This document shows, piece by piece, positions 2,125-64,000 of a stretch of 64,000 bases of DNA (position 1 is the first letter of the stretch; each line of letters opens with the position of its first letter). Position numbers and translations under genes: made by a program. The notes below the pieces were generated by a model that had not been told where the DNA came from, did no database searches, and saw only the letters and a program-made list of their open reading frames with translations. This stretch comes from Takakia lepidozioides (taxonomy: Eukaryota > Plantae > Bryophyta), in NCBI GenBank assembly GCA_030704615.1, contig CM060731.1, positions 558,001-622,000 on the forward strand, read 5' to 3'.

Positions 2125-2902
2125 GTGTAGGGAATTCCAGAAAGGCCTTGATGTGAAATGCATCCCAAGTCACTTGATCACCCCCCTAAAAGTGCGCAAT
2201 TGCTAAAACTAGCTTGAAAACAACCCTAATTTGCAATTCAATTGAATTGATAGTTGACAATTCAATAGGCTCATCATGTCTGAGTCCCTGACACTAGTAT
2301 TTGGCCCAGGACACAACCCCAAAGAAAACAAATAATCTGTTCATCTTGAGAATTATCAAAAATAATATTGTTTCAATACCCTTACAAAGGTCACTATCAT
2401 GTTGAAGTTGGGATGTATGTTCCATACAGAGTTTAATATATCAAACTCTTATACGTTGATACTCTTACATTGGTATCATGTTTGGTTATATGTACATAGC
2501 CATATATTGGCACCAACATCCACAAAGAGAGACAATCCGGCTTTTAGGGCAAGCGCTTCCTCTCTCCCTCTCCCGCTCTCCCTTAGGCTTATCTCGTGCT
2601 CAGGCCTCACGACGGGCAAAGGATAGACAGACGGGCAACATGTATTTTCAGCTTATATGTATAATTTGAATATGTACATATATGTATACATTATATATAG
2701 AAATAAATTAAAAATTATAGATTGACAATTGAATTGTATTTTGAGTTGACAATTGAATTGCAAATTAGGGTTGCTTTCAAGCTAGTTTTAGCAGTTCAAT
2801 TGAATTGCAAAGGCAATCCAATTGAATTGCGCACTTTTAGGGAGGGTGATCAAGTGAATTGCAATGCATTTCACATCAAGGCTTTTTTGGAATTCCCTAC
2901 AC
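2125..2902. mobile_element. Long-TIR (foldback) MITE-like element
   Basis: Arms of ~140-180 bp (gtgtagggaattcc... at 2125 and ...ggaattccctacac at 2902) are imperfect reverse complements. No clean TSD. Confidence 0.75.
2271..2722 (-). mobile_element. Dispersed non-autonomous repeat (possibly Helitron-like) nested in the foldback element
   Basis: A second copy lies at 44735-44895 plus 47790-48114. On the minus strand both copies begin A^TCTATAAT. The 3' end is not well defined. Confidence 0.6.
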
Positions 2903-19100: not shown

Positions 19101-22100
19101 GTTTGGCGAGCCTTTCTTCAAAATTGTGCATGTACTGAATTGGAGTCTTTTATAGACAAAAGTTCATGGCATGTTTTTACAGCAGATCCATCAATTCTTT
19201 CCCATCCTATGCTGGTTGTACTGTTTGTGAGAAGTACAAACTTAGAATTTCAACACCAAAGAGCCTTTCTATTCTTCAAGAAAAAGGGTTGTCTACTTTT
19301 GTGGTTAAATAAGACCCTCTTCAGGACCCTCTTCAGGACCATCAAGAACATTGTCCCTGCACCTCTGTTCACCAACTTCAAAAATCTCAAGGCTGAGCCT
19401 GAAGCCCTGGCCCTGTTGGGGTCTAATTGCTGGGCAACTCACACACAGCAAGTTGATGCTTGTGTGAAGGTAGTATCTGTTCCCTTTTGTTCCGTCCAAA
19501 CTGGGCACAGGATGTATGGCCACAAGGCTTCGGCAAATAATGCCTAATGAGTACATTCTCTCTCTCTCGTTGTTTGCTTTCGTTGAGGGGCTACGGCAAA
19601 CAACATCCAATATATTCTCTTCCTCCAGGTTTTGTTGTGCCGGGCTTGTTTTCATCTTAACTGCTCTTCTTACCCTTCCTGTGGATATCTTTGTAACCTT
19701 TGGTTACCTCTGTATGAGTTGAGAGAGTTTACTAAACTGTCACATTGATCTATGTTTTTTTCCTGGATGTCAAAAAGGCTTATGACACAGTGTGGAGAGA
19801 TGGCCTATGGTTCCGCCTCTGGTCTTGTGGGATCAAGGGAAAGATGTGGAGAGTTGTCCACAACTTGTATGCTCACACCAAAAGCTGTGTCACTGTTAAC
19901 GGACAGAAGTCCAACTTCTTTGACATAGACCAAGGTGTAGCTCAAGGATGTACTCTCTCCCCTCTGCTCTTCAATGTTTTCATCAATCAACTCCTCGAGG
20001 ATGTGGAAAGTGAGGGATTTGGGTAAAGGGTGGGTGATACCACCATACCAGCCCTTATGTTTGCGGATGACTTCGCAGGCATAGGGGAGACTCCAACCAA
20101 TCTCCAGGAGTTGATTGATTGCGCGAAGAGATACTTTGATCTTTGGGGGCTAGAGGCTAATGTCAGCAAATGTGCAGTGGTAGCATTCAACGACAGAGGA
20201 GAGGGAGGAAGTGATCTTAAGTGGCAGTGGGGTAGCCAAGAGATCCCGGTCCTCCCTTCCTACACTTACCTGGGCATTGAGTTTTCCTCCAATTGTAATT
20301 GGGATGCACATATCCGGAAAGTTGTTCAAACTGGCAAGGGCAAAGCTCTGGGGCTCACTAAATTTTTCCACTGCAGAGGGTTCAACTCTGAGGTTAAGAA
20401 AACCATGCTTTGTCGCGTTATTAGACCTCCCTTGGAGTACGGATCTGCTATATGGGTTGATAACTCCAACCAGGCTAAGTCTCTAGAATCCATTCAAGTG
20501 GGGGTGCTTAAGGAGTGTATGTCAGTATGCTCCAAAACAGCCAATGTGGCTGTTCGGGGTGAGTTTGGCATTCCGTCCTTAAGCTCCCGACGAGATGAAT
20601 TCAAGGTCAGATGGTGGGGTCAGCTGCAACATATGCCCAACACCAGATATCCTAAGTTAATCGACTCTATATCTTGGAAACAGGACCGCCCTGTCAAACA
20701 GGCTAAGTCCTGGCAGAAGAGAGTAGAAGAGATTCTCAAGGACCTGGACCTGGATCCGCAAGTCTTGACCCTGCTGGATAAATCTGACTTAGAGGCTGTA
20801 GTGTCCTCAGCCATGTCTGTTGCCATGAGATTGTCTGATGAAAATGAAGTTAGGCAGAAAACTTCCCTGAACTTGTTTCCAGTCAGTGACATGGGGGAGG
20901 ACATCTTGGATGACCTCAAGGGTCTACCCACTCTCGGCACTAGACTGAAATTTAAACTCAGGGCAGGAAGCCTACCTTTGAACAGCAAACAGAAGCAGAG
21001 AGGAAAGGGAGAGTGCAATTGCCCGCTGTGTGGGCAATCTGAAGACAGTATTCACTTTCTGATACACTGTCCGGGGTTCTCTCACCAAAGAGATTCTCTC
21101 TTCAATTCTATCAAGGGAATTGTGCCCGTACCCCTGTTTAACAACTTCGAAAGTCTCGAGACTGAGCCAAAAGCCCAGGCCCTCCTGAGGCCTAGTTTTT
21201 GGGCAAATCACACACAGCAGATTGATGCTTGTGTGAAGGGATTTCTAGAGGATATCTGGAAAACCCGGATTAATTCTATATATGATGGTAAGTCACACTA
21301 CCAACGTCAGCCCCTGACAGAGGTAGGTTCTGTCCCTTTTGTTCCCGCTCAAACTGGGCGCGGGGTCAATGGCCACAAGGCTACGGCAAACAACGTCTTA
21401 TGAGTACAATATATAGGAAGAACTTAAAAATGTGTGACTGATTCAGTGTGTCACATTTTTTCTAGGGGGGAAACTGGTTGGATGTGGAACGACACTGTTC
21501 AGTCATTTGAGCTCTTGTACTTGTCTGTCGCAGGATCCTTGCAGACCAGGTGTACTTGAAGCTGTTCGCAAGTGTCAAGCAGCGGGTGTGAAGGTGTGTA
21601 TTGTGTGTGTGGTTCACTGTATAGCCAAGTGATTAGTTTGTGTTTCATTTACTTGCACACAGATCCCATTTTCAACTCCTTGCTTCTACCATGTTGTCAT
21701 CAGTTAGAGTTGTAAGTTAAAAACTTGGAAGTTGTCTTTCTGAAAAGAGAGTTCTTTTTGGAAATGTGTGAACTCTTTCTTTTTTAGAAACTATTGGGGT
21801 TGTGTTGCGCAGGTTCGCATGGTGACAGGTGACAACCTGTTTACAGCCAAGGCCATTGCTCAGGAGTGTGGGATTCTGACGACCAGGGGGTTGGCAATCG
21901 AGGGGAAAGAGTTCCGCACTTTCACTATGGAGCAGATGAACGAATTCTTGCCGAAGCTTGATGTAAGCTTGCAAAATTCTGAGAATTTTCATGATGGATT
22001 AAATCTGCAGTAAGGTAGTAAGTAGTTATTATTCATTTCCTCTGATATGTTTGAAGAGGTGATAGCTAAGTATTAGCAACCCAACTGATGAGTAGAGTTT

Positions 22101-25100
22101 CCCGCAATAGTAGCTGTTCTAGGAATGGAAGTTTTTCTTCTCTCTCATGTGTGACACAGCCACATACGTGATAAATTCTGGGAACTATGTAGGTTATGGC
22201 AAGGTCATCCCCTATGGACAAGCTCCTGTTGGTGAAATCTCTTAGGGAGAGGGGAGAAGTGGTAGCTGTGACAGGCGATGGAACAAATGATGCGCCTGCC
22301 CTTCATGAGGTTGTATTCTGAAACACTAGTTTTGATTTCTTCTGTGTTTCCAATCACACCAGAACATAAGTATGCTGTGGACTGGCATTGATTCAGTGAT
22401 CGCCTTTTGAAGTTTACAATCTTTTTCATCTATCATTTAGGGAAGAGAGGCATGTGGCATGGCAGGCAGACATTGGACTCTCGATGGGTATAGCAGGCAC
22501 AGAAGTTGCCAAGGAAAGTTCAGATATCATTATTCTGGATGATGATTTCACTTCAGTGGTTAAGGTAGGATTCTTTCATACACCTTACCATCACTTTGTG
22601 ACTCTGGCAGTGTCCTTTCTACTTGATGGAGACAAGATATTGATCTGCTTCATGCCAGTTCAAGGATCTTGTTGGTGTGGATGGTGATATCTGGGTTTTC
22701 GTAACCATTTGTCCCCTTGTCTGATTATCTTTCAGGTGGTGCGCTGGGGCCGGTCCGTCTTCGCCAATATTCAAAGGTTCATTCAGTTTCAGTTAACAGT
22801 GAATGTGGTAGCACTGGTAATCAACTTCGTGGCTGCCATTTCTACGGGAAATGTCCCTTTGACTGCAGTCCAGGTGTGTTTCTGACAAGTCTTGAATGAT
22901 GTCCACTTCTGAAAACCAGTTGGATGTATTGGATTACTAAAGCACCTCGGTCTAATTGACAATATGGCTTGATTGGAGATCCTTAGAGGTAGGATATAAT
23001 CTATATTTTGTTTCCTTATGCCTCTGATGTAGATGAAGTTGAAAAGCAAACTCTTTTCACCCTTTGTTGAGACTTAATGCTTTCGTCGCACTTGATTAAG
23101 TACTTCAGTTTTTCTTTGGCAGCTCTTGTGGGTGAATCTGATTATGGACACATTGGGAGCCCTTGCACTAGCAACTGAGCCGCCCACAGATGAACTTATG
23201 GAGAGGAAGCCAGTTGGCCGCAGGTATATGTGTAAGAGACTTGTAGCTATTTGTGTGTTGTCAAAGTCATATCTTGTTGGCTGCACTAAATTCTGCAGCA
23301 CCTAATGGGGTAAGGTGGGCGATAATGCAGGGAGCCTTTGATCACAAATATAATGTGGAGGAACATATTTGTACAAGTAAGCAGTCATAGTCTCTGACAT
23401 CCACATGTGTACTGCATTGTCTCTTCCCCCCACCCCAGACCCTTGCAGCCCTCCCTCCCCTCTCTCTATAAAGTACCATTCCATTCCATTCCCCTCTCTC
23501 TATGGGGACCTGATGGATGTCATCGAGTTTTCTTCTCACTGGCAGAGGCCTTAGTTATTGCCCCAGTGGATGTAGTAGAGTGAACTCACCATTGTTTGCT
23601 GTTTATTGATGTGGTTTTGTTTTGTTTTATTTTCTCCCATGGGTCATTGGGGTCCCCCTGTGTGTTGGAAACTAGACCTGCCCTCTACCTCCTAGAGATA
23701 TTGACAGATAGTTTCTAGCACAAGCAGCAGTACAGTAACTGACAGCCTAAACCAACCAAAGAGTTTAGCTAACAAGAATGCTCCTTACTGCAAAAGAAAA
23801 GATTTACAAAAGTAGATGCTGGACTTCTCCTCCTCCTCTCTCTGCAATCTACTAGGATAGCACATCCAAAATGCTAGAAGAAGTGCTGGGCATTGCCTCA
23901 GCCTTTCCCTTAAATCCTACATGGGTTCTCTAGAAACTTCTGGTGGAACCATGGGCTGGAACCTTCTGGTAGAACTATCCCTAGCCGCCAAAAACCCTAA
24001 CAGAACCCTAACTAAATCTGAGCTAACTTCTAACACTCCCACTCAGCGAGGATTGAGGCTTAACCCAATCAGTTCCATGCATCTAGAATGCTTTTCTTTG
24101 GATAGAGCTTTTGTGAGTGCATCAGCTGCCATGTCCTCAGTTCTACAGACCAACTCAATCTCCTAACCAATCATTTCTCTAGTGAAATGATGTTTGATAT
24201 CTATGTGCTTGGTCCGGGCATGATGAACAGGATTCTTGCTCAGCTCAATGCTGCTCCTGTTATCAGCATGCACTTTCGTTGGCTGTTCTTGACTGAAGCC
24301 AAGTTCACCAAGAAGCCTTCGAATCCAAATGGCTTCTTTAGCTGCATGAGTCAGAGCCATATACTCTGACTCAGTCGAGGATAGAGCAGTGGTCTGCTGT
24401 CTTTTGCTGCTCCAGCTCACAGCACCTCCACTCATTACAAAGCAGTAGGCAGATATGGATCTCCTCTCATCTGTGTCTCCTGCCCAATATGCATCACCGT
24501 ATCCTTCTAGTGATGCTCCAGTGTCCTGCTTGTTGTAAGTTAGACATGTATCCGCAGTCCCTTTCAAATATCTAATCACCCTCTTGAGTGCTTTCCAATG
24601 CTGAGGTCCTGGGTTGTGCATGAACTTACTGAGCACTCCCACTGCATAGGCAATGTCTGGCCTGGTGCCAATCATTGCATACATCAGAGATCCCATGGCT
24701 TGCTGATATGGAACCTTAGCCATTTCCTCAATCTCACTTGGAGATTTTGGCTCCATTTCCTTACTCAGCTTGCAGCCGGTTTCCAATGGTGTTGGTGCTG
24801 GTTTGCAGTCCTGCATACCGAACTTCGCAACAACATTCCTGACATACCTCTCTTGGCTCAACTTTATAGTTCTTGCCTTCCTGTCCCTCAGAATCTGAAT
24901 TCCAAGTAGGTAGTTCACGGCTCCAAGATCAACCATCTCAAAGGTTTCACTCAAATCATGCTTCTGTCTGCGCATGGTGTCCTTGTTGTCGCTGATCAGT
25001 AGCAGGTCATCCACATAAAGTGCTATTATCATGACACCTGATGTCATGTAGTAAATGCTCTGATCAGCTGTACTCCTTACAAAACCTTGGCCTGTCAAGT

Positions 25101-28100
25101 AGCTATTGATCTTCTCATACCATGTCCTCGATGCCTGTTTGAGTCCATATAACGATTTCTTGAGCCGACACACCTTATCACCTTCTTGGAAGCCTTCTGG
25201 TTGTTTCATGTAGATCTCCTCCTGGAGATCCCCATTCAAGAATGCAGTCTTCACGTCCATGTGTTCTATCTCCCAGTCATGCTTCGCTGCCAATGCCAGT
25301 AAACATCGGATGGAGGTGAACTTTGCCACCGGGGCAAAAGTTTCATTGTAGTCAAGCCCTGCAGTCTGTGTGAAGCCTCTAGCCACAAGTCTGGCCTTGT
25401 ACTTCACTACCTCATTGGTGAGTCCTCTTTTCACTTTGAAAACCCACTTGCAGTCTACCGCCTTTCTACCACCAGGCAGTGTTCCCAAGTCTGGTTTTTC
25501 ATTAGAGATTTCATCTCCTCTAGCACAGCTCCCTCCCACTCTTTGGCATCATCCCTTGCCAAAGCGTCTTTGAGGGTGGCTGGCTCCTCTGCATCATCAA
25601 GGGCATGGAATCAACTTTCCATCTGCCCTACGTCATCCATAGTCAGACCAGTCAGTCCTTCTGCCACATTAGCTCCAAACCTTGCTGGGGGTTTGCTGAT
25701 CCTTCCTGACCTTCTAAGCCCCGCATCCTTGTCAATAGGATCCCGATCTTCAGAATCTTCATCCTCTTCTGGTTTCTTCACCACCTTCTCCCTTCGAGTG
25801 TAGACCTTTAGTACTGGTTGTTCCCTTTCTTCTTCTCCCACATCAGGGTCACAGGAATGGACAGACCCTTGGGCTTTGTCTCCTTCCCAAAACTATCCTC
25901 ATCAAACAGGACATCTCTACTCCTGATTGACCTCTTGGTTCTAGGATTGTAGACCTTGTACCCCTTGCATCCCAGATCATACCCAATGAAGATGCATCTT
26001 TCTGACTTGGCATCCAACTTGCTCCTTTGCTCGTCAGGTATCAATGTATAAGCAGCACAACCAAAAACTCTTAGATGCTTCCAGTTTGGCTTCTTCCCAC
26101 TCCATGCCTCCTCTGGAGTCATGTCTTTCAAAGCTCGCGTGGGACTCAAATTTTTTAGATAGGTGGCAGTGCTGATCGCCTCTCCCCAAAACCCTGGTCC
26201 AAGGCCTGAGGTCTGTACCATATATCTAGCTTTCTCAACCAGCGTTCTGTTTAATCTCTCTGCCACTCCATTCTGGGCTGGGCTGTCCCTCGCTGTCACT
26301 TGGCTCCTTATGCCCAGAGATCAGATTCTTTGCCAAGTCTGGCACATACAGGACTTTCTGAAGGGTACAATGGGAAACCTTACTCTCTTGATGAAGTTGA
26401 CAGGGATTTCTCCTATCATCGTACTTACAGAAAAGGTCTTGTTGCCCATCTTTACACTCCTACGCTGAATGGGTTTCAAGTTGCGAAACAACTCCTTCCT
26501 CCCACACATGTGGTTAGTAGCTCCAGAGTCCAAATACCACTCATCTCCACAGTATTCTCCTTCAGTAGTCAGCAGGTAGTCTTCATCACGACTGTAAGCT
26601 GCGTCTGCCATAAACAGGTGAACTTCACTGTCATTGCCCATGTCAGCGACATGTGCATGTACAGACTTCCCTTTCCTTGGTTTCCACTTGTCCTTCTTGG
26701 GCTTGTCAATCTTCACCTTGCAGTCCTTCTGGAAATGCCCAAATTTGCCGCATCGGAAACATGCTCCATCTTTCTTTGATGGAAGTAGCCGTCAGGGCAT
26801 TGTCCATACTTGAGCTACCCCTAGTCAGCTTGCTTTCTTCCATGATAAGTTGTGAAGTGACATACTTCCAACTCAGTCTACTCTTACCATGAGTAGCCAA
26901 TGCGGTTTCCACCATGTCATAACTCTTTGGCAAGGTGCCAAACAAGGTCATGATCTGAAGTGATTCAGTCGTGGGTTCTCCCGCATCAATTATCTCCAGA
27001 CACGTGGCTTTAACAGTGGCAATGTGAACGGCTACACTCTCACCTTCTCTCATTCTCAAGTCCATGAGCTGTTTCCATAGGACATATGCTTTCCCCATCG
27101 CATCTGTCTCATACACCTCACTTAAGCTCTACCAGACCTCATGAGCAGTTGTAAGATTCCTTACCAACACTACCAGATCTCGTGTTTGTGACAAGAGCTG
27201 CCATTGCAAGCTCATTCTCTTGGATCCATGTGGCCTCCTTCAAGTTATCCTCTGAAGGCTTTTTAGTCACTATTGACCATAGGCCCTTGGAAGAGAGCAG
27301 GAGCTTCATCATGTAGATCCAACTCTTATAGTTGTTGCCATCAAGTGGCTCAACTGTCCAAGTAGTTGTAAAGTCTCGTGGGCCCATAACCTGTTGGAAA
27401 CTAGACCTGCCCTCTACCTCCTAGAGATATTGACAGATAGTTTCTAGCACAAGCAACAGTACAAAAACTGACAGCCTAAACCAACCAAAGAGTTAGTACT
27501 AACAAGAAGTGTCAGTCCTAACAAGAATGCTCCTTACTGCAAAAGAAAAGACTTACAAAAGTAGATGCTGGACTTCTCCTCCTCCTCTCTCTGCAATCTA
27601 CTAGGATAGCACATGCTAAATGCTAGAAGATGTGCTGGGCATTGCCTCAGCCTTTCCCTGAAATCCTACATGGGTTCTCTAGAAACTTCTGGTGGAACCA
27701 TGGGCTGGAACCTTCTGGTAGAACTATCCCTAGCCGTCAAAAACCCTAACAGAACCCTAACTAAATCTGAGCTGACTTCTAACACTGGACGTTATATCCT
27801 TTCTTGTTTTCATTGGGTTCGTGAATATCATTCTACACCCTTTGGGTATGTAGTGGTTGTCAAAAAACTTCTTAGCTCGTGCTATATTGGTTTACATGCC
27901 TCTCTCAAAACCCTTAACCATGTCAACCCAGTGCATAACATTTCACGTTCATGAACTTTGTCCTATTACCCCTTGGGGTTTTCTCTCTTTACACCAAGTT
28001 ATGTTAGTTGATTCCAGATGAATGTTTCCATGCCCAAGATAAATACATTTCATGCCCATCACCTGCCAGGACTCCAAAGCCCAGCCATTATCATTATTAT

Positions 28101-38888: not shown

Positions 38889-40481
38889 TCAGATATAATA
38901 AACTCTGGAGCTAACTGTGAACACACCTTGTAGCCTCTGCTTGTAATCATGACAGGTGTGCTTGCTGGGAGTTGATCTAGCCAAACATTGGGGTCTCCCA
39001 TTTGCACAACCAGCATTCGGCTTTCGCCACTGCCAGGGAACTGGCGTGCCAACTCTACTTGAAGGAATGGGATGTTTCGAGCCCACCACCTTTGAAAGCG
39101 AACACTGCAATGACAAGTCTTGTTCACTACCTTCTGTCCCATCCTGCCAATCTTGCCTGAAAAAATTTCGCCTTCGACTTTGCACCCTTTCTGACCTCTT
39201 TCCCTTGATCCCCACTCTGCCCTTTCCAGCAGTCTCCAGCATAGCCATGTCCCCCTGCCTGGATTGAACACTTAATATCTGAGGTGGGTTGGGAGCTGAT
39301 GATATACATGGCCTAAGCGAACAGGAAAAGCCAACAACAACCTTATTAACGACTGACTCAGCTGCCCAGAACTCCCGTGCATCCGTGGTTGTCCTCCCCA
39401 TCTTTTCAAACCCAAGAAAGCTGCAGGCTAAGGCCTCCACAGAGCAGAAACTATCGGGAAGGGACTCGTTCCTATGCTTGCCAGTTCCCATCGCCTTCAC
39501 TAATAGGCTATTTGGATGCAGTAGCTGGGACTCATAAGCCCAGTATTTGGCTCCTGCCATAGCCATGGTTGTCCGCTGCCTCTTGAAAGCTCTTCTGGCT
39601 GTGTCATGCTCTACTTCTACCGACATGTCCAGACATATTTTCTTCTCCTCTGTAGAAAGTCCCCCTCTTTTTTTGTAGTGCTGTGCTGCACTGAATGGGG
39701 ATCCCAAGTACTCTAACTCATTCCTTGCTGTACTTTCGGGTGATTCAGGACAGCACACGGGTTTAAATACTCTAGCCTTCATCTTCCATGTGCTCTGTCG
39801 ATTTGTTGCCCACTCTCCTCCAGGCCTGTATGTGATTGACTTACTGCCCACAGCAGGCCCCAGTGTAGCAGAGACTGAGAAAGCTCTCATTTTTGTCCTC
39901 GTGCCTTGTGTCCTGCATATGTGCCGTTCTTCCATCTTTGCTACAGGAAGTGGAAACTGCAAATCAGTCCACACTTGCTCTGCCTTAATTATCAACAAAG
40001 GCATATGGCTTGGGACTAGAAAATGAGCAGTGGGGTCCAAGGATTGCTTGGTGGCCCGTTGACAAAGCACAAGGCTAGAAGCAAGACCACCCTCTCTAAT
40101 GTCAGGCAGTTGGACCTTAAAAGGCACACAGGTACGCATTGTACTAAAGACAAAGCTGCTGTCATTTAGTGTCCCAGATTGCTTGGACATCCCTACCCAA
40201 GGCAGCAGAACATCGGACCCTGCAGGCTTTACAGACATGCCTGCAGAGTGCCTTCCAATCACAGAGTACTTCCTGTCCGACATGAGTTCCCCAACCTCAG
40301 AGTGATGGTGGCTTACAGGTTGTACCAAACCTCGAGAAGTCTGGATAGTCAAGTCATCATGCGTATTATGGTCCGATTCGATCAACATCTCTTCTCTATC
40401 TTTCATTGGTCCCCCCACTGTCACCTGCATTACATCATGTTTTAGAAATGTTTTTTGAACCATTCCGTACGGGATTATCAA
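38889..40481 (-). other. Long low-complexity ORF (530 aa), possibly a detached 3' part of the SANT gene
   Basis: Open frame with no recognisable domain, on the same strand as and just downstream of the SANT exons, separated from them by stops. Confidence 0.3.
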
Positions 40482-40564
40482 ATACCACCCCCGAGATTTT
40501 AAGACCTCATCTCATAGAAACCGTTGTGAGAGTTCCATTTCTGTCACTGGCACATGTAGCAGCA

Positions 40565-43050
40565 TCAAAGGCAGGAACAAATGGCTGAGAGAATGGGCTG
40601 TGACTCGACACTCATACAAGCCTGTATCAGTGATAGGGCCTTGGCTCATGATCCCAAACAAAAAACAACTGCAGACATACTAATATTGCCTATTACCAAA
40701 AGTGCTTAAGACAAAGAACCAACAACAACACAAAGGCAGCTAGCATAAGCTCCTGTGGCAAGAGAGAGATGAGAGCATAAGACCATTTGTAAATCCACCA
40801 AAGAGAGATTGTTGTCCACATAATGAAGTTCTAAAATATTACATCACTGCTACTTACCAGGCACGGCAATGAACTGTTGCCAGATACAGAAATATTGGCA
40901 TCCCCCCCAGCTGAGTTTACTTGAACTTGAGAGCCGTCAGCCTGAAGGGTAGGCAGCCTGCTAAACTTGCTAAGCTTCCCTATTTCTGAGTCATCCTTTC
41001 CCAATTTCAAACAGGGAGACTGCTTTGTGTTCCATGGTTGCTCTGACTTTCGCTTCTTCCTGCCTTTATCAAAATGTGACTCCACAGAGCACTGGCTCTG
41101 TGAGACGCCATCAGGTCGGACTTCAGCATCCTCCTCATTTTCACAATTCCGAGCAGAACCCCCTTCTTCCACTTCTGGGGGGTCAAGAAGGCTGGGATCT
41201 GATGTGACTAGATTAAGCACTTCACTCACTGAATCATAATAGTGGACCCCCTTGACTGACGAGCCCTTTGAGAAGCCCTGCACGCTTGGACACACAAACA
41301 CGAGTGAGCTCTTCGGCCCAAATGAGCTCTGGCTCCAAATTTCCTCAGAATGCCACTTCCTGGCTAATAGGCGTGGCCACACAGCTTCCCAAAACAAATC
41401 ATTAGCACGAGCTTTGCTGATGCGAAAGTCTCCTGTGAGGAATTTCACAAGCTCCTCCTTGGATAACGTGGAGCAAGCCTTCCCAACAGGAATTTCTGTC
41501 CTCCCCCCAGCCCCGTGGCCACCCCGCGAAGGGTCTAGAGGGACAGATGTTAGGTCCATCTTGGGTGCACCTATCCCCACACACTCCACTAGGAGCTCCA
41601 ATCCTGCTACAGCCTTGAGTTGCGCCACAAAGTCCTCTAGTGGGACCGCCCCATTGTTGAATGCATTTATAGCCTGCCAACAAAAGCCATGGCAAACCCC
41701 CACTTTCAAAACCCAGATGATGTAGGTGCTGTCAACAAACTGCTTCTTGAGCAGCTAGTAGTGCTGAGGCATGTTATGAATTGTGATCTTTGTCAATGCA
41801 ATTACTTTTGGTCACATCAAATTGAATTACAGACATGATTGCTTCAGCTAAGCAAGCCTGAAGGGTTGGTCTCCCCAATGAAGTGCTTCATATCACTGGG
41901 TTCCCCTGGAAGCCCCAAACACATACAATGTTGCACAATGAAGTCGAATGTTTCTTACCACCAGAAGTTGGGGCCTTGCGGACTCTGGTAGTCTAGAAAG
42001 CATCCGCACCAACAGCTCCTGCTGCCGCCAACCAGACAAAATACGTGCCCCATGAACACTCTGCCTGCTCTGAGAATTTTTGGAGGATGACCACCTCAGA
42101 TATGTAGAGGTTCCATAAAATTGGCCATAGTAATAATGCAATATGTCCTTCATCTCCTTGTCTCCTACAAATCTTTTTACAACAGATAAATCTTTGCCAA
42201 ACAGATGAAGCCCTAGTACAAATGCAGCCACTTCTTTGTCAGTCCATGAGGCAGGTCCGCCGCCAGGCACAGTCCAGCTGTGAGCGCCTGTTCCTCCCTG
42301 TTGCCATGCCTCATCAAATTCCATATGCTTGCTAATTGAGTGTGCCCCTCTGCTACCTTTGCGGCCCTTTTCTACATGCATTCTCTTTGTCACTTTCACT
42401 CGCGCCCATCGATTTCCTCTCCTCTTTCTGTTCCTACCTCCACGAATTCCATCACCTAGTGACATACCTTTACAGCCTTTAACGTCCAATTCGGTAAATC
42501 TAACACTCATTGAGGTGGGCAGTTTGATTTTTGGAATTTCCAAAGCAAGGCTTGTATCAAATGAACTTCCTGATGGCTGTCTATCTAAGTCTAAACCGTC
42601 TCTATTTGGCTCCTGCGGACCCCACTCAGATTCGCTGAGGTCCTTCACAACCTCAGTCGAGATCATGGAATTGTCCACAGGCTTTAATTCCTCCTCCCGG
42701 CCCAACCTAGAATCAACTTCTTCCCGCTTGGTTCTCTCTCGAGGAGGCTCCCCACCGAGCTGTCGCTTTGTTGAAGCCAAAAATGAAAGGCGAGGAATGC
42801 ACATCACGGGCACCACTGGTAGGCCATCCGCATACAGTCGCTCCATATCTACATCTACGATTTCCCTGCGAAATTGTTGCCTGTAATCACAATGCCTGGT
42901 CTGACAATTATATCCTGGAGTCCCTGTGAAAGAAGGTACAGTTGCCTGATGCTTACGTCCGATCTGAGGCCATACGCGTGGACCGCCAGACATCACCGCT
43001 GAGCTGGATGAACCCCAGTGCGAACGACCCTTTGGGGAAACGGTCTCCAT
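40565..43050 (-). CDS. SANT-domain / ELM2-like chromatin protein (At1g09040/At1g55050/At2g47820-like)
   Basis: PQIGRKHQATVP; SWTDKE..FVLGLHLFGKDL..VKRFVGDK..ILHYYYGQFY; ANDLFWEAVWPRLLARKWHSE. Exons 43050-41959 and 41673-40858. The 3' end is uncertain. Confidence 0.85.
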
Positions 43051-43777
43051 GTTGTGTCTTCCCGGTCAGGCCTGGCGCCCCAGGTCCCTACCTTCGTCCT
43101 TATGCATTGAATCCATTCTTCGTTTACTGCTCCGAAGCTATACAAGTTCGCAATTATCGCCAGATTTGGAGGGATATCGCTCTAAGTTTCCATGCGAGCG
43201 ATCTAAGCTCCCAACCCCACTGCTAGAGCCGAATTTACTGAGGCATCTATCGTTCCAACCTCAATCCAGGTGTTGTTGACTGTTTCACCTTTCACTCACG
43301 TCTCTAACTTTATACATGTACTTGGAAAAACCCCTTCAACGTGCAGATAATTGCTCCTAGTGTGGGACCCCAAAACAGGAGACTGTGATGGCGCGATTGA
43401 GCTCCTTCCAGCACATCCTGGGCAATGCGGGGTGTGGAATTGCGCTTCCACTTGGGAAATGCAAAGATTCCTCTGGGAAACAAACATCCCAGCTCCTCCC
43501 GCGCAATGCACCATCCCCTCCTGCAGAACCCGCGATCCTAATCACCACATCCGTCCTCTAGCCATTGCCCACCCCCAAGCACGCTGCACGGCCAGGAGCC
43601 CAGCCGCCAGAGAGCAGACATGTCACATGCAGCCGTCATAAAGTTCTAGGGGGCCAGGCCAGCCATCCCCGCTTTCAAACTCTCCCCACTACCCGCTTGC
43701 ACCGGTCTAAGGGCGTCCCGGGGCCTAACGGGATGCCAGAATCGGCAGACCCGGCCCGTTCCCTGGCGTTTTAATAT

Positions 43778-52631: not shown

Positions 52632-53689
52632 CAGTGTTGTGCGGGTATATTGATTTCAATATACCCTTAGGGTATAAGTAAATGATTTTTGTCCAATCAT
52701 TTACCCTCCGGGTATGGATAAATTAACTTAAGATTTCTATATAACCCCCGGGTATGGATATATATGCCAAAAATATACCCTGAGGGTATGAATAGTTTCC
52801 GGGTATGGATAGTTATTTCAATTAATATATAATTTAATGGTTTTAAAGAATACATGATGTTCTTCAATATGTACAAAACACAAAAAAAACAATCTAGGGT
52901 AAAAGAGAAAATTGATAAGATATTGCATAATATTTTGGTGTTAATTTCCAATGCAAGATGGAGGAGGTTTGAGATTAAAAAAAAATCACATCGGCTGGTA
53001 GCTCAGCTGGAAGTGCATAGTGTGTGGCGATATGGTGGTTCGGGGTTTGAACCCGCTACCTTGCCCCGTGTGTGGGATTGTTCGTGACGGTACGTCTGGG
53101 CGTTGATCGTCCTATAGGTCTCATGGTCCATAAATGAAAGGGGGTTAATCTTTCCCGCTCCTCAAGGGCCTGAATTGTGGGCTGTCGCTCCCAGGTTTCC
53201 TGCGGTGTAAAATTTAAAAATTAAAAAAAAAAAAAAAAAAAAAAAACCCCTTCAAGGACCTAAATTGTGGGCAGGTTTCCTTATATATATATGTGCGAGA
53301 TTTGAAGAGGTTATATGATATTTTAGGAATGATATATATGTAGCATTTGTTTTAGTTGTGATTGGAGCTTTCTTATAGCTCAAGGCGTCCTAACAACACA
53401 ACAAAAAGAGAAAAGACCTAGCACACAAAGGCTATGAAGGCACGTAAAGGCCCTTATATACCCTGATTAGATTTACTCTTCATTTTAACATATCCCCTTC
53501 AGAAAAGTAGGGTATGTTGAGCGTCTTGATGCAGGGTAAATATAAGGATAAGGGTATATCATAAAAATATACCCTGATAGAAGGGTATACATCCGGGTAC
53601 CTAAACTTGCTACACCAGGGCATATATATAATATACCCTGATATACCCGTCGGGTATATCGGGGTAATTTATATACCCGCCCAACACTG
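52632..53689. mobile_element. hAT-like MITE with atataccc/gggtatat subterminal repeats
   Basis: TIRs cagtgttgtgcgggtata / tatacccgcccaacactg; degenerate flanks gtttggat / gttggaca. Confidence 0.75.
52993..53246 (+). mobile_element. tRNA-derived SINE nested in the hAT-like MITE
   Basis: A box tagctcagctgg, B box ggtttgaaccc, 24-nt poly(A) tail. Confidence 0.7.
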
Positions 53690-54859
53690 GTTGGACAACA
53701 ATGTAGTTGTGTCGCGATACAGATACGCACAACAGCTGTCAAGTTCAATTAATTATAGTGTGAAACTAACTGAAATATATCTGATTATTTGTATTTAATA
53801 TTTGTAATTACTTCAAGTGTTAAGTCAAGTGTCAAGTTTATCTTGACACCTGAAACGTCTTATCCTCACAGAGTGTGTGAATGTACTTGTGGAGGGAGAG
53901 TAGATGTTCTGGGGTGGAGTCCCGATCAGGGTTTTTTTTTTCATTTTGGCTAAGAAGCGTAGATGGGTACAAAATTTGAAGGCTAAGTGCAAAGGTGGCG
54001 ATGACATAGATGCTTAGCTAAAAATCAACTGGCTACAGGCTATTTCATTTGCATGCAATATGGCGATTTGAGCCCACTCACAATCTGAAATCTAAAATAA
54101 TTAATCAAAGAAGTCCAAAGATGGCCAGCAAAAACCATAGCCTCAATTTCAAATAGCAAAGGTCCAGGTCGTGCTCCATGGCGAGATCTCCACCGTTGAT
54201 CGCGCAATGGGGCGACAGCCGCTAGATGTAGGGCTGTGGGGAACGTGTATTTCCGGCGCAACACGCATGTTCCCTTGCAGCTTTCTAGCACCAGCCCGTG
54301 CGCACGCCCCTATTTTCTGGCGCATTTTTTGTTTTTTTTCCCAGGATTTTACATAGGGTTGTCGCAGCCCTTTGTTTTTTATCGCTTTTAGGCTCCATTT
54401 CGCCTAAAAAAGAAGCGCTGGTCCCCATAGCTTGGGGTGCCCCATGCTTGACTACCTATTGAGTGATTGAGTTTATGTTTTATGTATCATGTAACAGTGA
54501 CTTTTAATAGTTTAGAAATCTATTGTGGCATACTAGTTTGTTGTTTGCATATGTGTTGTATGGCTTGGAAAACGATATAGTTGTGTAGTGATACGGATAC
54601 GCACAACCGCTGACGTGCCAGTGTTTCGGAATCAAGCATGAACATTTAGCTCCATATTGACAATAAAATGGGATGGTCAAAAGACTGATTCGTTCACTCA
54701 AAGAGTGCATGATCACGATGAGTTCACGGAGAAAAATGAATGGGACATAGATCTTTATAAAGCAGCATTTGGCTATAGAGTGGGGATACAGCTTCTTGTT
54801 TTCGTTCAAGGTACTAATAGGAAGGTCAATGCGGTTGGGAGTGGCACTACAACAGATGA

Positions 54860-55560
54860 GCGTTTTTATGACTTCACATATGACTATTTTTTCAGTCTTA
54901 TATGCGTTCATGACTACATCACTCTGTAGTGAAAAAAACCCTGTCATAGCGACTAGTCTATAGGACTGCGTTTTGCAAGTCATATCCATGACTGCTTGCG
55001 TGGCACCTGGAGTCCTGCTGCAGAGAGGGTTGCAGTCACAACTATATGACTAATATATGACTACATTGTCTGTTGAGCGCTGCCTACATGGAGAGGCTTC
55101 AGCGGGACATGTGCGCCACTGCGCAAGCGACACGTCATGCATTCGTCAGGGGATCATATGACTATATGTCTGCAAAGTGATGCCTACATGGAGAGGCGAC
55201 GGATGGACACGTGCGCCACTGCGAATTTGACATGTCACGACTTCTTGCCATGATCATATGACTACATGTCTGCACAGTGATGCCTACATGGAGAGGCGCT
55301 AGCGAGACACGTGTGCTATGGCAGATTTCACACGTGGTGACTACATGACTCGCTCATATGACTACAGGGATGTCTACATGGAGAGATATTAGCGGGACAC
55401 CTGTTGCACTTGAGATGTGACATGTGACACACAGACAAAATATATGACTAGCATATATGACTACGGATCTTTACACGTGGTGAAAATATGGATAAAGAAT
55501 GTCGTGTCATATACTGCCACGTGTTCTGGTTTGAGCAAGAGTGATGCCACGTGTCATCAA
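54860..55560. repeat. CACTA subterminal repeats (ATGACTA motifs; tgcctacatggagagg..cacgtg units of ~95 bp)
   Basis: About four ~95-100-bp units at 55050-55470 and more than ten atgact(a) motifs. Confidence 0.85.
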
Positions 55561-56017: not shown

Positions 56018-59000
56018 ACTATCCCTTCCGCAGCTCCATAAGTTTCAGTAACTTTAGACTCCAAAGTGTTGTCTGGCCAACCACCTACCCCAACTCGGTC
56101 TGTTTCCTAACACCATTCACATATGGTAGAGGGGTGTTACTGACACATGCCTCTTTGATGTACACACAGGCATAATCAAGGGGCACAGCAGGGTACCCGT
56201 AACCCACCACAGCACCTTGAAGAGCAACAATCAGCCCTACTCCACATTTCTTGCGTTTGGAGTTCACATCCAACAGCCGAACCTCGTCACCCACCCTGAA
56301 CTGTGATCCCAACTCCACACAAAAAAGAACACGATGTGAAAACCCATGACATACACACGACTAGGACACTCAACATTTGTGAGTTAAAGAGAGCCCCAAG
56401 GTTGGAAAAAATATAACAGACAAGACAACGGCCTGGACTTACTCCATTTGCAGTCTCCAGTGGTGGTGAGACCTCTTTTGGGGGGCTACTCGCCGGGTCG
56501 ACACTCTTGCCCCTCGTCTGTACCGGCTTGTCGACAATATCACCTTTGTTTGTCACAAGTTCCTGTGTCACAGACCAGAGATCAACCAGGAAAGCAATGA
56601 GCAAACAGGAATAGTGAATAGAAACAAAATCCAAGTATGAATCAAACAAAAAAAGCCAACATGAAAAGCTGCAAAAAAAACCTAGCATTAATCAAGCAAC
56701 CGAGGAGAAGCATCCAGGAAAGCAATGCAATGAATGAACCCACAAAAATGTAGCCTCTGGAGCACTGTCAGAATGTTTGTACCTTCACAGTAGCAGTGTT
56801 GTATGGTTGTTGTCCGAAAACAGGCTGAAGACTCCAAAAACTTGGGAATACTGGCAGCTTTCGATGCCTTCCACAAGAAAGGCCACAACACCTCTGTTAG
56901 ATACTCATCAGTTGGTGAATCTGGTTGCACCTTCCATGGCTCTGGAAAAATCCCACTGAAGGGAGGATTGTTTGCCGCCTTTCTTGGTGTGTCGTCAACA
57001 AGAACAGTGTCCTCATAAGTCCATTCTGGCCAGTCTGCCCACACTGTAGACAAGTTCTTGAAATATAATGGCTTTGAATCAGACCCCTTACGGCATGGGA
57101 GGACTGGATCCTCGTCACAGTGAAGGGCATCCCACTGGAAAACCAGGTTAGTGTGGGCTGCAAAAATATAGTCCACCATTGGGAAGAAGTTGCGAGCTTG
57201 GCAACAAGACCACACCGCCACCTCAAAGTGTTCAAAACACTTTTGCAAAAAGTCATAACAGCGTGGTCTCAAAACTACCATCTTCTTGCCACACATCTTC
57301 CCCACAAAACCTTTGGGAAGGGATGCAGGCCCATTAGCAGAATGAAAAGATTCACATAACAGACCATTTAAGTCCAGAATTAGTAAATGCTTCCTCGTTG
57401 GTCCAGGAAGTAAACTGACATTTGGCTTCAACATGTGAGCAGGAGAAATTAAAGCAACCTGCTTGTTTGTTTTGTCCCCGTCTGCATCTTCCTCCCCATC
57501 TAAACTCCCACATACCTGCATACCAGAATCCGGTGTGCCCGGCGGCTCTGTCACCATTGCCCCCTGGACTGCTACTGCCTTTGTACGTGGCAAGGGCTGA
57601 ATTTCCACGTGTACCTCACAGCTGGCCTTCCCTGTATCCTGCTGCTGCTCGGTCAAATTCAAAAGATCATCAGTGACAGGAAGACATAAGGGCTTAGAGT
57701 GAGCACCAGTTACCGTCTGAAATTGGGATTCCAAACATTTTGATACTGTCACAGCAGACGTATCCATCGTAGATGTCACTGGTCCTGCGCCTGGTAGATT
57801 AATCCCCAATCTGGTCACAATGGCTTTCTGGTACTCAATCATACTCTGCATCTGTAATTTTAATTCTGCCATGTCACGTCCTTGTGATTCCACCAGTTTG
57901 TCCAAGCCATCCATCCTGCCAACTACTGTAGAATATGCGAGACTTCCCTCCTGCCAATCCATGAAAACTTGCCCAAGTATGAATCAAACCAAAAAAACCT
58001 AGCATGAACAACCATTGGAAAGAAAACCCAGGCCAAAAGCCGTGAAAAAAACCCTAGCAACCTATGATGCAGCAACCACTCTAGCAAACGTGGAAAACAC
58101 ACTTACCCGCCTGTCACTCCCAGCTGACAACCGTGACACTGAACCCTCTTGAATTTCATATAATGTAGGAGGGCACCCTGATAGTGTTTCCTACAAATTA
58201 ATCCATGCCACAAACAAACCCATGCCACAAGTCAGTAAGCAATGTGAGGGCTGACTATATACACATAGCAATTCAATGAGGAACAAAATACAGAGTCGTG
58301 ATGATGCCACTTACCAAGCGTGCTTCCACCATTGCCTTCCCACCACGGCCAGTCTTGGTAGGATTCAGAATTGCACCATTTGCCTTCTTCATGTTGCCCG
58401 ACACTTTGTGGAACACCTCTGTCTGCCAGTAACTTACAAGCTTGTTCCATACCTCGTCAGATACAGTAATGGGTTTCCCCTTACCACCCAACCACGCAGT
58501 GTGTGCTTCATAACGCTGGCTCTTCATTATTCTGCCAATTGTTTGTTTTAGGTGGAAGTCTTTTAACTCGTGCGGCGTATATGAAAATAGCTTAGCCAGG
58601 TGATCTCTGATTTCGTATACAACTTCATCAGGTTGGTTGTTGATGGCAAGGGAACAATCTAGCTTGCGATAAGCCTGTCCTTTAAGGGCAGCGTGCCATA
58701 CATTCCGGGTCTGACCATACGGGGCTCCTTTGAGGTTCGTCAAAATCACCGTGGGAGGAAGACCTGCAGCTATTCTCTCTTCCTTGACCTTGGCAGCTTC
58801 AATTTTGGCTGAGCTATTAGCCCTCCTTAAAGCATTGGTTCTATCATTCTTTGAAACGGCACCCTCCCCTCCTTCAGAGACCTCCGTGCGCTCAGGAGAA
58901 TTCAAAGCAGGATCCTGCCAAGTAGGGACTGGTGGCCATGGTTGTTGGCCAGAAGGCCGAGGACCATACTGGCCATACTGTCCATAAGCAGGAGGATATT

Positions 59001-60150: not shown

Positions 60151-60702
60151 CTCCATGACCTCCCTCTCAAACAATCACAAACAAATGTAAGCATACATAC
60201 CCTAATACTCTTAAGCCTACGCTGAACCACAGCCGCACCCTACCCCCACGAATGACGGCGGACATCTCCCGCCTAATGACACACCCTCCTCAAACCTAAT
60301 CGTCACTCACTGCATGTTGTTTGCCTCTCTGTTTGTACAAGTCGCAGCTACTCGCCCCCATTTGTGCTATGAAGCTTATGATCGCTGTAGGAAGGTTAGA
60401 GGATAAGGCAAATCGCAAGTTTAGTGGGTGGGTATCCAAAGTCAGGAACTAAACTCACCCATCTATCGACTGCTTGAACGTTGCTTCCACCTCCTTTATG
60501 GCAGCAATCCGGCGCTCTCGGAACTTCTCGTACTCAGTGAGAGGGACTGTCACTTCGAAGACCTTCCGCTTCACCATGGACACTCAGAAACGATACTTAT
60601 AGTATACTATAGATATAGAAATAGCACATTGGCAGCTGGTGCAAAACTAGAGACAATGCACTGTGCGTAGCATGCAAAGAGGGAAGGGGTGACGTTCAAA
60701 GC

Positions 60703-63700
60703 ATGTACAGTGCAGGTGGCGAACGGATGCGTAGGCGTAGAATAGATGACCGTCTATGGCGAATGGAAGAAGCTTATGCCACAAGGAATGGGCATACAAA
60801 AATGCTATGCAACTGCGATGAGTGTCATGGAGGAAAAGTACTCTTGTTGGAAACAGTGAGGAATCATTACATGATACACGGGAGGGATCCTCTTCTCCAA
60901 CGCTGTTCTCTTCCGGTAAGATCGCCACTTTCCCTTCAGCACTTTAGTTTGAATTTTGAATGCAACGATCCTCTTCTCCACATGTCGACATTTCGTTGGG
61001 TGATTGTAGTCAAGAAGTCATAAGATACAGACGTGAGTATGACTACGCCACTTCCGTTATCACTTTAATTAATGCACATGTCGTGTTTTCATTGGTCATG
61101 TGTAGTCATGTAGTCATATATGACTAAGTAAGTGACTGCAACTATGACTTCAATGGTTACAAATGTCGTGTTTTGATTGGGTGTATATTCATAAGATACA
61201 TACGTAAATATGACTGCATCACTGCAACGTCACCGTGCCTCCTATGTCATAATATGAACAAGTGTCACATCGTTGTTGGTCCACTCACAAGATGACTATT
61301 GGGATGCAGGGATGTGAATATTCAGATGATGAAGACGAAGGCCCTGCGGCACAGCGGGAGCCCAATGTCACAGAGAACGCAGATGAGAGTGGTGGATTGG
61401 AGGTAGAAATGCAGCGTGCATTGCAGGAAGCGTTTCTCTTTGCAGATGCAAACAGAGAGGACCCCATTCATGGTGGAACCGATCACACATTTGCCGATCA
61501 TGACGATGATCTCGACGATTCGGGAGACAATGAATTTGATGAGAATGCTCACCTGCACGTTGATCCCGAGTATGATAAACTCTTCCGAGCGTCGCAATGT
61601 CCACTTTTTGAAGGGTGCTCCATCAGCCGGCTGCAAGCAACTTTGACGTTGCTGAACGCATGCACTACCCACAAGTGCACCAATGCATTTGTGGATGAGC
61701 TTCTGGGATTGTTGCGTAAGAGTTTTTTGCCTAAAGAGAATTCATTGCCGAAAACTCACTATGAAGCAAAAACCATGATTGCCAAGATGGGATTGCAGTA
61801 CACGATGATTCATGCCTGTGAGCGTGGTTGTGTACTCTTCCGTGGGGAGTATGAGAATGTAGACATTTGCCCAGTGTGCCGCAGTTCCCGTTACATTCCA
61901 GGTCGTGGAAGTGTGCCCAAGAAAGTATTGCGACACTTCCCTGTCATTCCAAGGTTGAAACGTATGTACCGATGTAAATCGATCGCTAACCTCATGACAT
62001 GGCACGACAGACATAAGAGCCAGGATGGGTTGGTTCGACATCCAGCTGATAGCAAAGCATGGAGACACATTGACACCACATTTGCGGATTTTGCTGCAGA
62101 GCCACGATCTCTGCGATTTGGATTGGCCTTAGACGGTGTAAATCCCTACGGAGCTCAATCCACAAGTTGGAGCACATGGCCCGTTCTCTTGGTCAATTAC
62201 AATCTGCCTCCGTGGTTAATGACCAAAAAGTTCTTTGTCATGTTAGCGCTACTGATTCCTGGTAAGGAGTCTGTTACCTCGGACAACGTAGATGTTTACC
62301 TGATGCCCCTAGTGGAAGAGCTATTGGAACTATGGAGAGGGATTGCAGCTCATGATGTTTCCCGTCCTCGTGGTCAACGCGAATTCACACTGAGGGCAGT
62401 GTTGATGTGGTCAATCCATGACTACCCTGCATATGGCTTGCTCTCAGGTCAAGTGACGAAAGGTTATGCTGGTTGTCCAGCTTGTGGACCCGGGGTGACT
62501 TCACAGCAGTTACACACATGTGGAAAAATTGTTTTCCTAGGCCACCGAAGATTTTTGGCCCGCAATCATCCATATAGAAGGTCAAGAATGTTCAATGGCG
62601 CTACTGAGCATGGAACTCCTCCAAAAACGCAGACTGGAACACAAATCAAGGACCTTGCAACAGCTCGCACTGCATGGGTGGAAAACGGAGGGACGCCAGA
62701 TAGCAGGACAGACCCAGCAAAAACTCATGGAGTTAAGCGATTGTCAATTTTATATGTCTTACCTTATTGGGAGGTAATTCCTTCATGGCCTTTAAATTGG
62801 CTGTGTACATTTTTGCATTTTCTGTTTAAATTGTGATGAGTAAATGCTCAATTGCTTATGTGTTCATTTTGTAGGGTCTCCTCAACTGCCACACGTTTGA
62901 CGCAATGCATTGCGAGAAGAACTTGGCTGAAAATATTATTAAAACTATCTTTGGTGAGAAAGACACATTGAAAGTTCGCTGTGATTTGGAGCTACTTGGG
63001 ATGCGCCCGGAATTGTGGCTACAACGTGATCCTGACAGAGCAGATACGTTAATTATGCCTCCTGCCCCTTATGTCCTCACTGAGGCTGAGTTACAAGTCT
63101 TTCTGGAGATTGTGCAGAACTTGAAAGTGCCAACAGGCTACGTATCAGCTTTCAAAAAGCATGTGGTGAAGAAGAAGTTGTCAGGCATGAAATCACATGA
63201 CTATCATGTGCTCATGCAGCAAATTATACCGCTTGCTATCCGTGGGCTCATGCCAAGTGGTCCTCGAAGGGCCATTTTGCGAGTATGTCGTGTATTTAAG
63301 AAGTTGTGTGCAAAAGTGGTGAATCCTATAGAGTATGAGGAATTGAGAACTGAAGCAGTTCTCACTCTGTGTCTTATAGAGAAGGAGTTCCCACCATCAT
63401 TTTTTGATGTGATGACACATCTGGTTGTTCACCTAGTGGATGAGTTGTACCTATGCGGGCCCGTAGCATCTCGTTGGATGTACCCCATGGAGCGGGCAAT
63501 GAAAGATATGAAGGGCTACGTAAGAAACATGGCAAGGCCCGAGGGGAGCATGGCAGAAGGATACCAATTTGAAGAAGCATTGGGTTTTTGCACAGAGTAT
63601 ATGGCAGGATTTGATGGAAGTGTACGAAGGGTGTGGGATGCAGATGAGGCAGAATCTGTGGAACGTGAAGTTGTGGAAGGAAGTTCTAAAGCCCGAAAAT

Positions 63701-64000
63701 TGAATGACCTGTGTGATATTGTACATGAGTACATCATTCAGAACCATCCTCGTCTATCAGTCATGTTGGGGTAAGAAATCTACTTCATTGACATTCAGAT
63801 TTCCAAGTTTTAGTCATTTATCATTAGTTGGCATATGGCGTCTTTTCAAATCTCCCACGCCACCTCTGTCAATCTCCTGGCTGACCCTCGGATTGTGACA
63901 GGATATATGAAGCAGAGTCCACACGGATAGAAGCCAGACGACGCTTGTTTCGTGCGGAGCAAGGGCTGGAAGGCATGAGCAATCCCACGGCAATTCAGTA
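60703..64000 (+). CDS. CACTA Tnp2/TnpD-type transposase, multi-exon, runs off the window
   Basis: Exon 60703-60915 (CNCDEC..VRNH..HG transposase-associated domain); 61310-62773 (IHAC..C.LF..CPVC, HPADSKAW, LALDGVNP, STWPV, IHDYPA); 62875-63770 (MHCEKN, KSHDYHV, FPPSFFDVMTHL..HL, WMYPMER); 63902 onward. Splice phases are consistent and no stops were seen. Confidence 0.93.

Follow-up and report, generated by a model that had tools for sequence, protein, structure and literature searches.

Sequence-specific anti-silencing by transposon-encoded proteins has been described in Arabidopsis for VANC, which acts at internal motif clusters, and for TnpA, which acts at the element termini (PMC5735166; 10.64898/2026.08.24.746577). 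TnpA is reported to bind dense terminal motif clusters, which leads to local hypomethylation and activation (10.64898/2026.08.24.746577); in the case of TnpA and Spm1, the same report describes the internal methylation as largely unchanged and dense motif clusters as required (10.64898/2026.08.24.746577). The genes of split Arabidopsis CACTA elements are given as head-to-tail (PMC13547354), and TnpA-like proteins are stated to be confined to flowering plants (10.64898/2026.08.24.746577; PMC13547354). VANC proteins are reported to bind motifs that have multiplied as tandem repeats within introns and between genes (PMC5735166; PMC10398659), with units gained or lost between copies (PMC5735166). 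The literature searched by us, which comprised few subscription journals, no classic maize papers and mostly titles and the beginnings of abstracts, contained no intronic clusters of subterminal motifs and no FCP1-like fusions in CACTA elements, and a search on CACTA with FCP1 returned nothing relevant.

Here we describe an element that shares features with both systems. The last 9 kb of the window, i.e. the whole stretch of 64,000 nucleotides that was analyzed, represent the left part of a CACTA element, of which the left end and the middle were examined, the right end being situated beyond the window. Its left terminus (54845-54857, plus strand; length of the terminal inverted repeat assumed) begins with CACTACAAC, a sequence found only once from 52 kb onward, and is directly preceded by the 3 bp TGG as a candidate target site duplication. 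Contig matches from the runs X8 and X9 begin exactly at position 54845 and have unrelated flanks. Short non-autonomous derivatives in these two runs have the left end in common with the element (window 54845-55464), being about 87% alike and carrying internal deletions. The terminus beginning with CACTA, a Tnp2 transposase with DUF4218 in a chain of 857 codons, and subterminal repeats in both direct and inverted orientation identify the element as an ordinary member of the CACTA (En/Spm) superfamily. Among the 120 transposase homologs listed, the sole species-named one is from a liverwort. A host gene in the window has 41-60% identity to its 120 listed homologs, the named members of which are from seed plants. 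On these grounds the host is taken to be a land plant, likely a non-flowering one. A SANT/DUF7650/DUF7952 host gene was noted in the window together with retrotransposon pieces at 20027-26320 and 38889-43065, which carry RVT_1 as well as RVT_2 of the copia type and integrase. ATACCC/GGGTAT motifs cluster at 53450-53690; this cluster is repetitive in all four runs compared and likely represents a small element of its own that borders on the CACTA end from outside.

The transposase is encoded on the plus strand. Exon 1 (60703-60915) has a weak match to a transposase-associated domain (PF13963, E 0.02) and tblastn matches in 18 loci, exon 2 (61310-62773) encodes the Tnp2 domain (PF02992, E 6.5e-75), and exon 3 (62875-63770, end approximate) carries DUF4218 (PF13960, E 6.2e-36) and was placed by domain and frame. 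Cutting out 60916-61309 and 62774-62874 joins the three exons to the stop-free chain of 857 codons. The predicted intron 1 (60916-61309, plus strand) begins with GT at 60916, ends with AG at 61308-9 and contains stops in all three frames; its boundaries are thus deduced from splice signals and reading frame, and two runs presumed to be RNA showed no joint across it, which speaks neither for nor against the intron. By eye, intron 1 has roughly the same place and phase in the related loci L002 and L004. The second gene, ORF2, is situated on the minus strand head-to-head with the transposase. The predicted starts of ORF2 (60577) and of the transposase (60703) both lie 5.7 kb inside the left end, while their distance to the right end is 3.3 kb or more, and the DNA between these head-to-head frames (60578-60702) is predicted to act as a shared divergent promoter. 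Long contigs of the runs X2 and X5 are more than 99% identical to the window. Relative to it, they have a gap of 1 bp at 56828 and an insertion of 26 bp at 59784, so that close to the end of the NIF frame the copy in the window, or the way it was assembled, deviates from the family.

The preliminary description of this DNA had claimed that the first transposase intron is dense in the motif of the element's end, and the counts bear this out. All five sequences that it gave as examples were found inside 60916-61309, where ATGACT occurs 8 times in 394 bp (20.3 per kb, both strands). The same motif was said to fill 54860-55470, and indeed 13 copies were counted in 635 bp over 54846-55480 (20.5 per kb). 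The coding exons, for which a lower density had been noted, have 0-2 copies each: ATGACT is absent from the 325 bp of exon 1 plus promoter, occurs once in the 1466 bp of exon 2, twice in the 895 bp of exon 3, and once in the 4591 bp of the ORF2 region. Outside the element, 37 copies in 54,845 bp (0.67 per kb) were found, so that the intron is 30 times denser than flanking DNA, and the best 394-bp window within 1-54844 has a count not above 2. Dinucleotide shuffles of the intron contained on average 0.50 ATGACT, and none of 5000 reached 8. In a blind count of all 6-mers, ATGACT ranked first in both intron 1 and the left subterminal region. The full ATGACTA is present in only 5 of the 8 intron sites.

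The similarity between intron and terminus extends beyond the core. The intron site consensus TATATGACTACA equals the terminal consensus of the window's element, and the consensus tATATGACTACAt in the intron matches the flank consensus at the terminus (10 intron versus 15 terminal TGACT sites). Under a matrix made from the terminal sites, the scores of the intron sites greatly exceed those of TGACT sites in the background (p 0.0002). A C at position +2 characterizes 8/10 intron and 9/15 terminal sites, and is found in 0/26, 2/18 and 2/9 sites of the end-type clusters of the relatives L012, L049 and L005, respectively. With the matrix from the L005 end-type cluster, the intron sites reach a score of 1.61, hardly less than the 1.84 obtained with the matrix of the window itself, so that the motif has to be regarded as clade-wide and not family-private. 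Close direct pairs and back-to-back inverted pairs are common to the intron and the left subterminal array (54868-55463; 13 ATGACT and 15 TGACT in direct and inverted pairs), the latter including 100-bp tandem units at 55055-55366. The densest part of the intron cluster, 61102-61126, consists of a direct tandem pair and a perfect 16-bp palindrome at 61111-61126, which represents two sites back to back. In total, 4 of the 10 intron TGACT sites are on the minus and 6 on the plus strand, which differs from the one-orientation arrays of VANC targets. A second motif class, RCAYGTS, reaches 10 per kb in the intron, 22 per kb at the left end and 0.9 per kb outside, with palindromes counted twice. The observed/expected ratio of CpG is 0.84 in the intron, 0.82 on the promoter side and 0.76 at the left end, compared with 0.34 in the ORF2 body. 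This CpG retention around cluster and promoter fits an anti-silencing reading and does not discriminate between readings.

The degenerate units of about 90 bp that had been proposed for the intron were recovered as about 3.5 decayed units of 96, 85, 99 and 51 bp starting at 60979, 61075, 61160 and 61259, which hold 2, 4, 1 and 1 sites; since the units are tandem repeats, these sites can be regarded as independent only in part. Tandem Repeats Finder gave no row at intron 1, the units being too decayed. A diverged copy of the intron (joint of record 11 in run X5) has 25 differences in 191 bases and lacks exactly one unit length: it skips 61177-61275, one unit length in register with unit 3 (99 bp, 61160-61258, plus strand). 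Eighteen of the 25 differences are listed, one of them common to the main family. The others are situated near the ends of the piece, which leaves the first two sites out of the scoring. Four of the five scorable ATGACT sites are kept versus 2.0 expected (p 0.07); one site of the palindrome at 61111-61126 is lost, while at the loose end of the copy the last site and the splice acceptor are retained. Conservation at the level of single bases is not significant (2/30 vs 16/99, p 0.16), and the site retention, coming from one comparison and not significant, is suggestive. The copy also shows 4 transitions and 14 transversions compared with 133 and 101 element-wide (p 0.006), which is not counted as support because thresholds and contigs differ.

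The possibility that the intron is an independent nested MITE, which the preliminary description had named as a competing origin, received no backing. Neither own terminal inverted repeats with a target site duplication nor the sequences CACTA or TAGTG were found in intron 1, and intron and left subterminal region do not align beyond the motif (46/300 and 198/300 motif-kept shuffles reach the score). The best MITE candidate, 60986-61168, has an 8-bp inverted repeat and a 3-bp flank, but the diverged copy carries changes in the left arm; it was rejected. Both X5 contigs on the intron core continue into exons with a depth like that of neighboring bins, although contigs cannot show absence; the runs X6 and X7 have no contig matching the intron. 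Hence, the intron is not a recognizable MITE.

The protein that could read these sites is ORF2. Its predicted exon 1 (60459-60577, minus strand; ATG at 60577, donor at 60459) contains a helical stretch to which, by eye, similar ones exist in L002 and L016. A longer exon includes a TnpA-like helical domain (about 58315-58857, minus strand) with a weak match to PF03004 (Transposase_24/Ptta; E 4e-4, 21 bits and thus below the cut-off of 28.7). A first homolog search with this domain yielded none, while a later search with 58318-58857 found 64 relatives, of which 62 were aligned and two long repetitive ones left out; 19 of the 63 aligned members match PF03004. The AF2 model of the domain reached a pLDDT of 94.8, compared with 41 for a single-sequence fold. 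In this model, residues 42-119 appear to resemble tri-helical DNA-binding domains (BEN, Zeste, GT-1, GARP, homeodomain) with Z up to 5.4, a value below the level that the fold-comparison tool calls reliable; for BEND6 (Z up to 5.4) the rmsd is 2.6 over 63 aligned residues. The fold matches of the domain have Z-scores of 4.1-6.2, the top two being unrelated proteins, and by hand count 24 of the 50 listed are DNA-binding proteins. A Foldseek search of PDB remained empty at E<=0.001. TnpA-like proteins are characterized by two tandem tri-helical HTH motifs; the match described for ORF2 concerns one tri-helical region, residues 42-119. The helical domain is therefore, by a weak likeness of its modelled fold, a candidate binder of the motif.

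Downstream in the gene, an exon at 56691-57950 (minus strand) encodes a NIF/FCP1-like phosphatase domain (PF03031, E 2.2e-16), and a predicted small exon at 58107-58190 (minus strand; splice signals, in-frame chain) may link it to the helical domain. The preliminary description had spoken of a TnpA-FCP1 fusion. An in-frame splice from the helical to the NIF exon is possible, since 2 of the 5 acceptors tried, 57947 or 57950, keep the frame. FCP1/SCP phosphatases have the canonical catalytic motif DxDx(T/V), whereas the NIF exon of ORF2 reads DLNGLL. A NIF/FCP1-like domain is also present at the ORF2 position in a second, distant lineage (L046/L048/L049, about 2490-2900, minus strand).

Regarding the described systems, the window's element resembles En/Spm (maize En/Spm, Arabidopsis Spm1 and Spm3) in its CACTA end, the Tnp2/DUF4218 transposase and the dense paired subterminal motif. 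Both also have a distinct accessory protein, which here is Transposase_24-like by a weak match and has a tri-helical domain according to prediction. However, TnpA of Spm1 is reported to act at the termini, while here the motif is clustered again 6 kb inside the element and the genes are head-to-head; moreover, a NIF domain is predicted for ORF2, and the host probably does not belong to the flowering plants. With the Mutator-like VANDAL elements of Arabidopsis and their VANC proteins, it shares a motif in tandem units of introns or intergenic DNA that is rare in exons, and a copy-number change of the motif-bearing units, seen here in one comparison. VANC belongs to another superfamily and is an unrelated protein, the Pfam domains here being Tnp2, DUF4218, NIF and Transposase_24. 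VANC sites are 9 bp long, in one orientation and family-private, whereas the window's sites occur in both orientations with a clade-wide core. For a protein-dependent loss of methylation, as at VANC targets, the CpG ratio gives an indirect hint. The intron is thus like a VANC target in its layout but not a VANC target.

Relatives were scanned among metagenome loci (best 80 of 477; 54 rows including the window in a quick tree); genome contigs gave one locus, L081, which was left out of the counts, and viral contigs none. With TGACT fixed beforehand from the window's end and a zone of up to 3 kb before the main exon (at least 600 bp), a cluster in the 5' zone was found in 2/23 clade relatives (L001, L004), and in 0/16 loci outside the clade. 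When the pattern was widened afterwards to [CT]GACT, L016 was added (3/23). An automatic test of downstream introns was positive in 2/17 clade loci and in 0/9 others. Altogether, TGACT is enriched in introns or promoter DNA of L001, L002, L004 and L016, four loci chosen after viewing the data, with L002 and L004 being sisters. In their hand-annotated, pooled introns, TGACT occurs 10 times versus 2.1 expected in L002 (top 5-mer of 333), 12 times versus 2.9 in L004 (rank 3 of 314) and, as a weaker case, 7 times versus 2.5 in L001 (24/2000 shuffles), whereas the exons of relatives have 1-3 per kb. In locus L004, promoter DNA as well as introns 1 and 3 contain unrelated units of 22, 34 and 41 bp that have this core in common, the L002 introns are enriched with no tandem array detected, and the introns of the two align poorly. 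Such differences look like a turnover of units at constant motif content. The clusters of L016 ([CT]GACT) are situated between its divergent genes and those of L004 probably upstream of exon 1.

Other relatives gave a different picture. In L049, both ends are present with TGACTA and the genes have the same divergent layout with NIF, though in broken frames, and there is no internal cluster; L038, the sister of L001, has none either. End clusters of the TGACTA type exist in L049, L012 and L005. Apparent internal clusters in L050, L056 and L072 turned out to be their two termini, and in L005 the apparent cluster is due to a nested insertion with a different motif, a very small palindromic sequence of CACTA type (L005:8645-8795) that has TGCAACT repeats and is situated upstream of transposase exon 1. 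Across the 54 loci, 23/284 tandem arrays contain TGACT versus 15 expected; given this slight general excess, arrays alone are not evidence. Since the termini of L001, L002, L004 and L016 are off their contigs, the statement that the internal motif is the element's own terminal motif holds for the window only, and with an open fork in the quick tree, the window, L001, L002/L004 and L016 may or may not have the trait by common descent. The feature itself is genuine and is found again in a small share of the relatives, with a function that is deduced. Two further designs were observed in related elements. A SET-domain exon is located inside transposase intron 1 at L004:538-1140 and L002:4442-5044 (PF00856, E 7e-11 and 7e-10) as well as L038:2984-3445 and L001:3-212 (tblastn), with none found in the window; it is probably an alternative exon spliced to exon 1 and a candidate for a transposon-borne histone methyltransferase. 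In L019 (335-787), paired AGGCCT palindromes occur in a 127-bp tandem array that closely precedes the start of the transposase, possibly the same design with another motif.

The explanation that we prefer, with a probability of about one half, is that the intron cluster serves as an internal landing pad for ORF2, which keeps the divergent promoter in the middle of the element active against silencing. It builds on the motif cluster and its agreement with the terminal consensus, on the tandem units and the loss of one of them, on the head-to-head layout, and on an enrichment that some relatives show as well. In intron 1, tandem duplication would have built a further cluster of the subterminal motif, the ORF2 protein would bind ATGACTAC-type sites, and, once bound at the intron cluster, would keep the predicted promoter of both genes active against host silencing. 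The likely effect would be local hypomethylation and positive feedback, by analogy to TnpA and VANC in Arabidopsis. An internal cluster may be needed or selected because the mid-element promoter would be out of reach of local terminal binding. The preliminary description had already suggested such a pad, and the enrichment, the lack of any MITE sign, the VANC-like turnover of tandem units and non-coding placement, and the repetition in relatives carry this suggestion part of the way. The cluster had also been placed close to the shared promoter; it indeed lies 0.3-0.6 kb from the transposase start, but the promoter itself has 0 TGACT sites. Speaking for the landing pad are a density equal to that of the terminus, the gain or loss of units between copies, the CpG retention and the tri-helical likeness, whereas the lack of the cluster in most relatives, the non-significant base-level conservation, the clade-wide nature of the motif, and a promoter that has no site and is yet as CpG-rich as the intron count against it.

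The same observations have to be weighed for other explanations. The cluster could be a neutral relic, for which the intron would have taken up a subterminal piece, e.g. from the right end or from a derivative element, that then grew by slippage without purpose, even if it may bind ORF2. The RCAYGTS motif class common to intron and left end, counts inflated by tandem units, the merely borderline site conservation and the precedent of L005, where a short CACTA-type insert with another motif sits just upstream of the transposase, would all fit. Yet intron and left end do not align beyond the motif, the intron is devoid of CACTA or TAGTG, and the L002 introns are enriched without a detected array while the arrays of L004 consist of unrelated units, which makes a relic rather unlikely. 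A cluster within the transposase transcription unit, instead of the promoter, could alternatively act as a built-in Suppressor, with ORF2 on the intron blocking or stalling RNA polymerase II in a negative feedback that limits transposition. TNPA on dSpm subterminal sites is reported as a steric polymerase block (PMC2613891), and the predicted fused FCP1-like domain could conceivably act on the polymerase tail. The dSpm case likewise places a TnpA-type motif cluster inside a transcription unit, but there a defective element is inserted in a host gene, whereas the window's cluster has no termini and belongs to the element's own intron. With the clusters of L016, and probably of L004, upstream of exon 1, a non-canonical NIF motif, and an Arabidopsis TnpA that is reported to activate (10.64898/2026.08.24.746577), we regard this function as unlikely.

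Proteins of the bZIP, WRKY and TALE homeodomain families recognize sites with a TGAC core, so the intron might instead be an enhancer with sites for host transcription factors that provide tissue- or stress-specific expression. It would agree with this idea that CACGTG-like boxes accompany the motif and that the TGACT core is common to lineages about 50% identical in the transposase, unlike the fast-diverging VANC motifs. However, position, density and direct/inverted pairing correspond to the CACTA subterminal repeats at the true ends of the window's element, L049 and L012, and the flanks are family-specific with the intron following its own end; host factors are thus distinctly improbable as the explanation. 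Hardly any weight is given to an aid for transpososome formation or packaging that loops the middle to the ends, or to a decoy titrating ORF2: TnpA has been modelled as bridging distant DNA (PMC13547354), but there is no TIR-like sequence near the cluster, and the non-autonomous derivatives carry the left end while the intron was not seen in them.

If the landing pad exists as proposed, a wider reading may be considered, which we put forward as a tentative idea that is more doubtful than probable. In a CACTA clade likely living in non-flowering land plants, the promoter would have moved to the middle of the element, and VANDAL-style anti-silencing would have been reached independently, with the element's own motif seeded by tandem repeats into introns and promoter DNA, and a TnpA-like protein with chromatin or polymerase cargo reactivating the element from within. 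The cargo would be the FCP1-like domain in the window and the SET exon of the same intron in relatives. The domain of 180 residues and the defined short motif with its natural variants supply a pair for a direct test of binding. If true, TnpA-type regulation would be extended beyond flowering plants, and a CACTA element would use the layout of VANC targets, the position of the motif cluster being tied to the position of the promoter.
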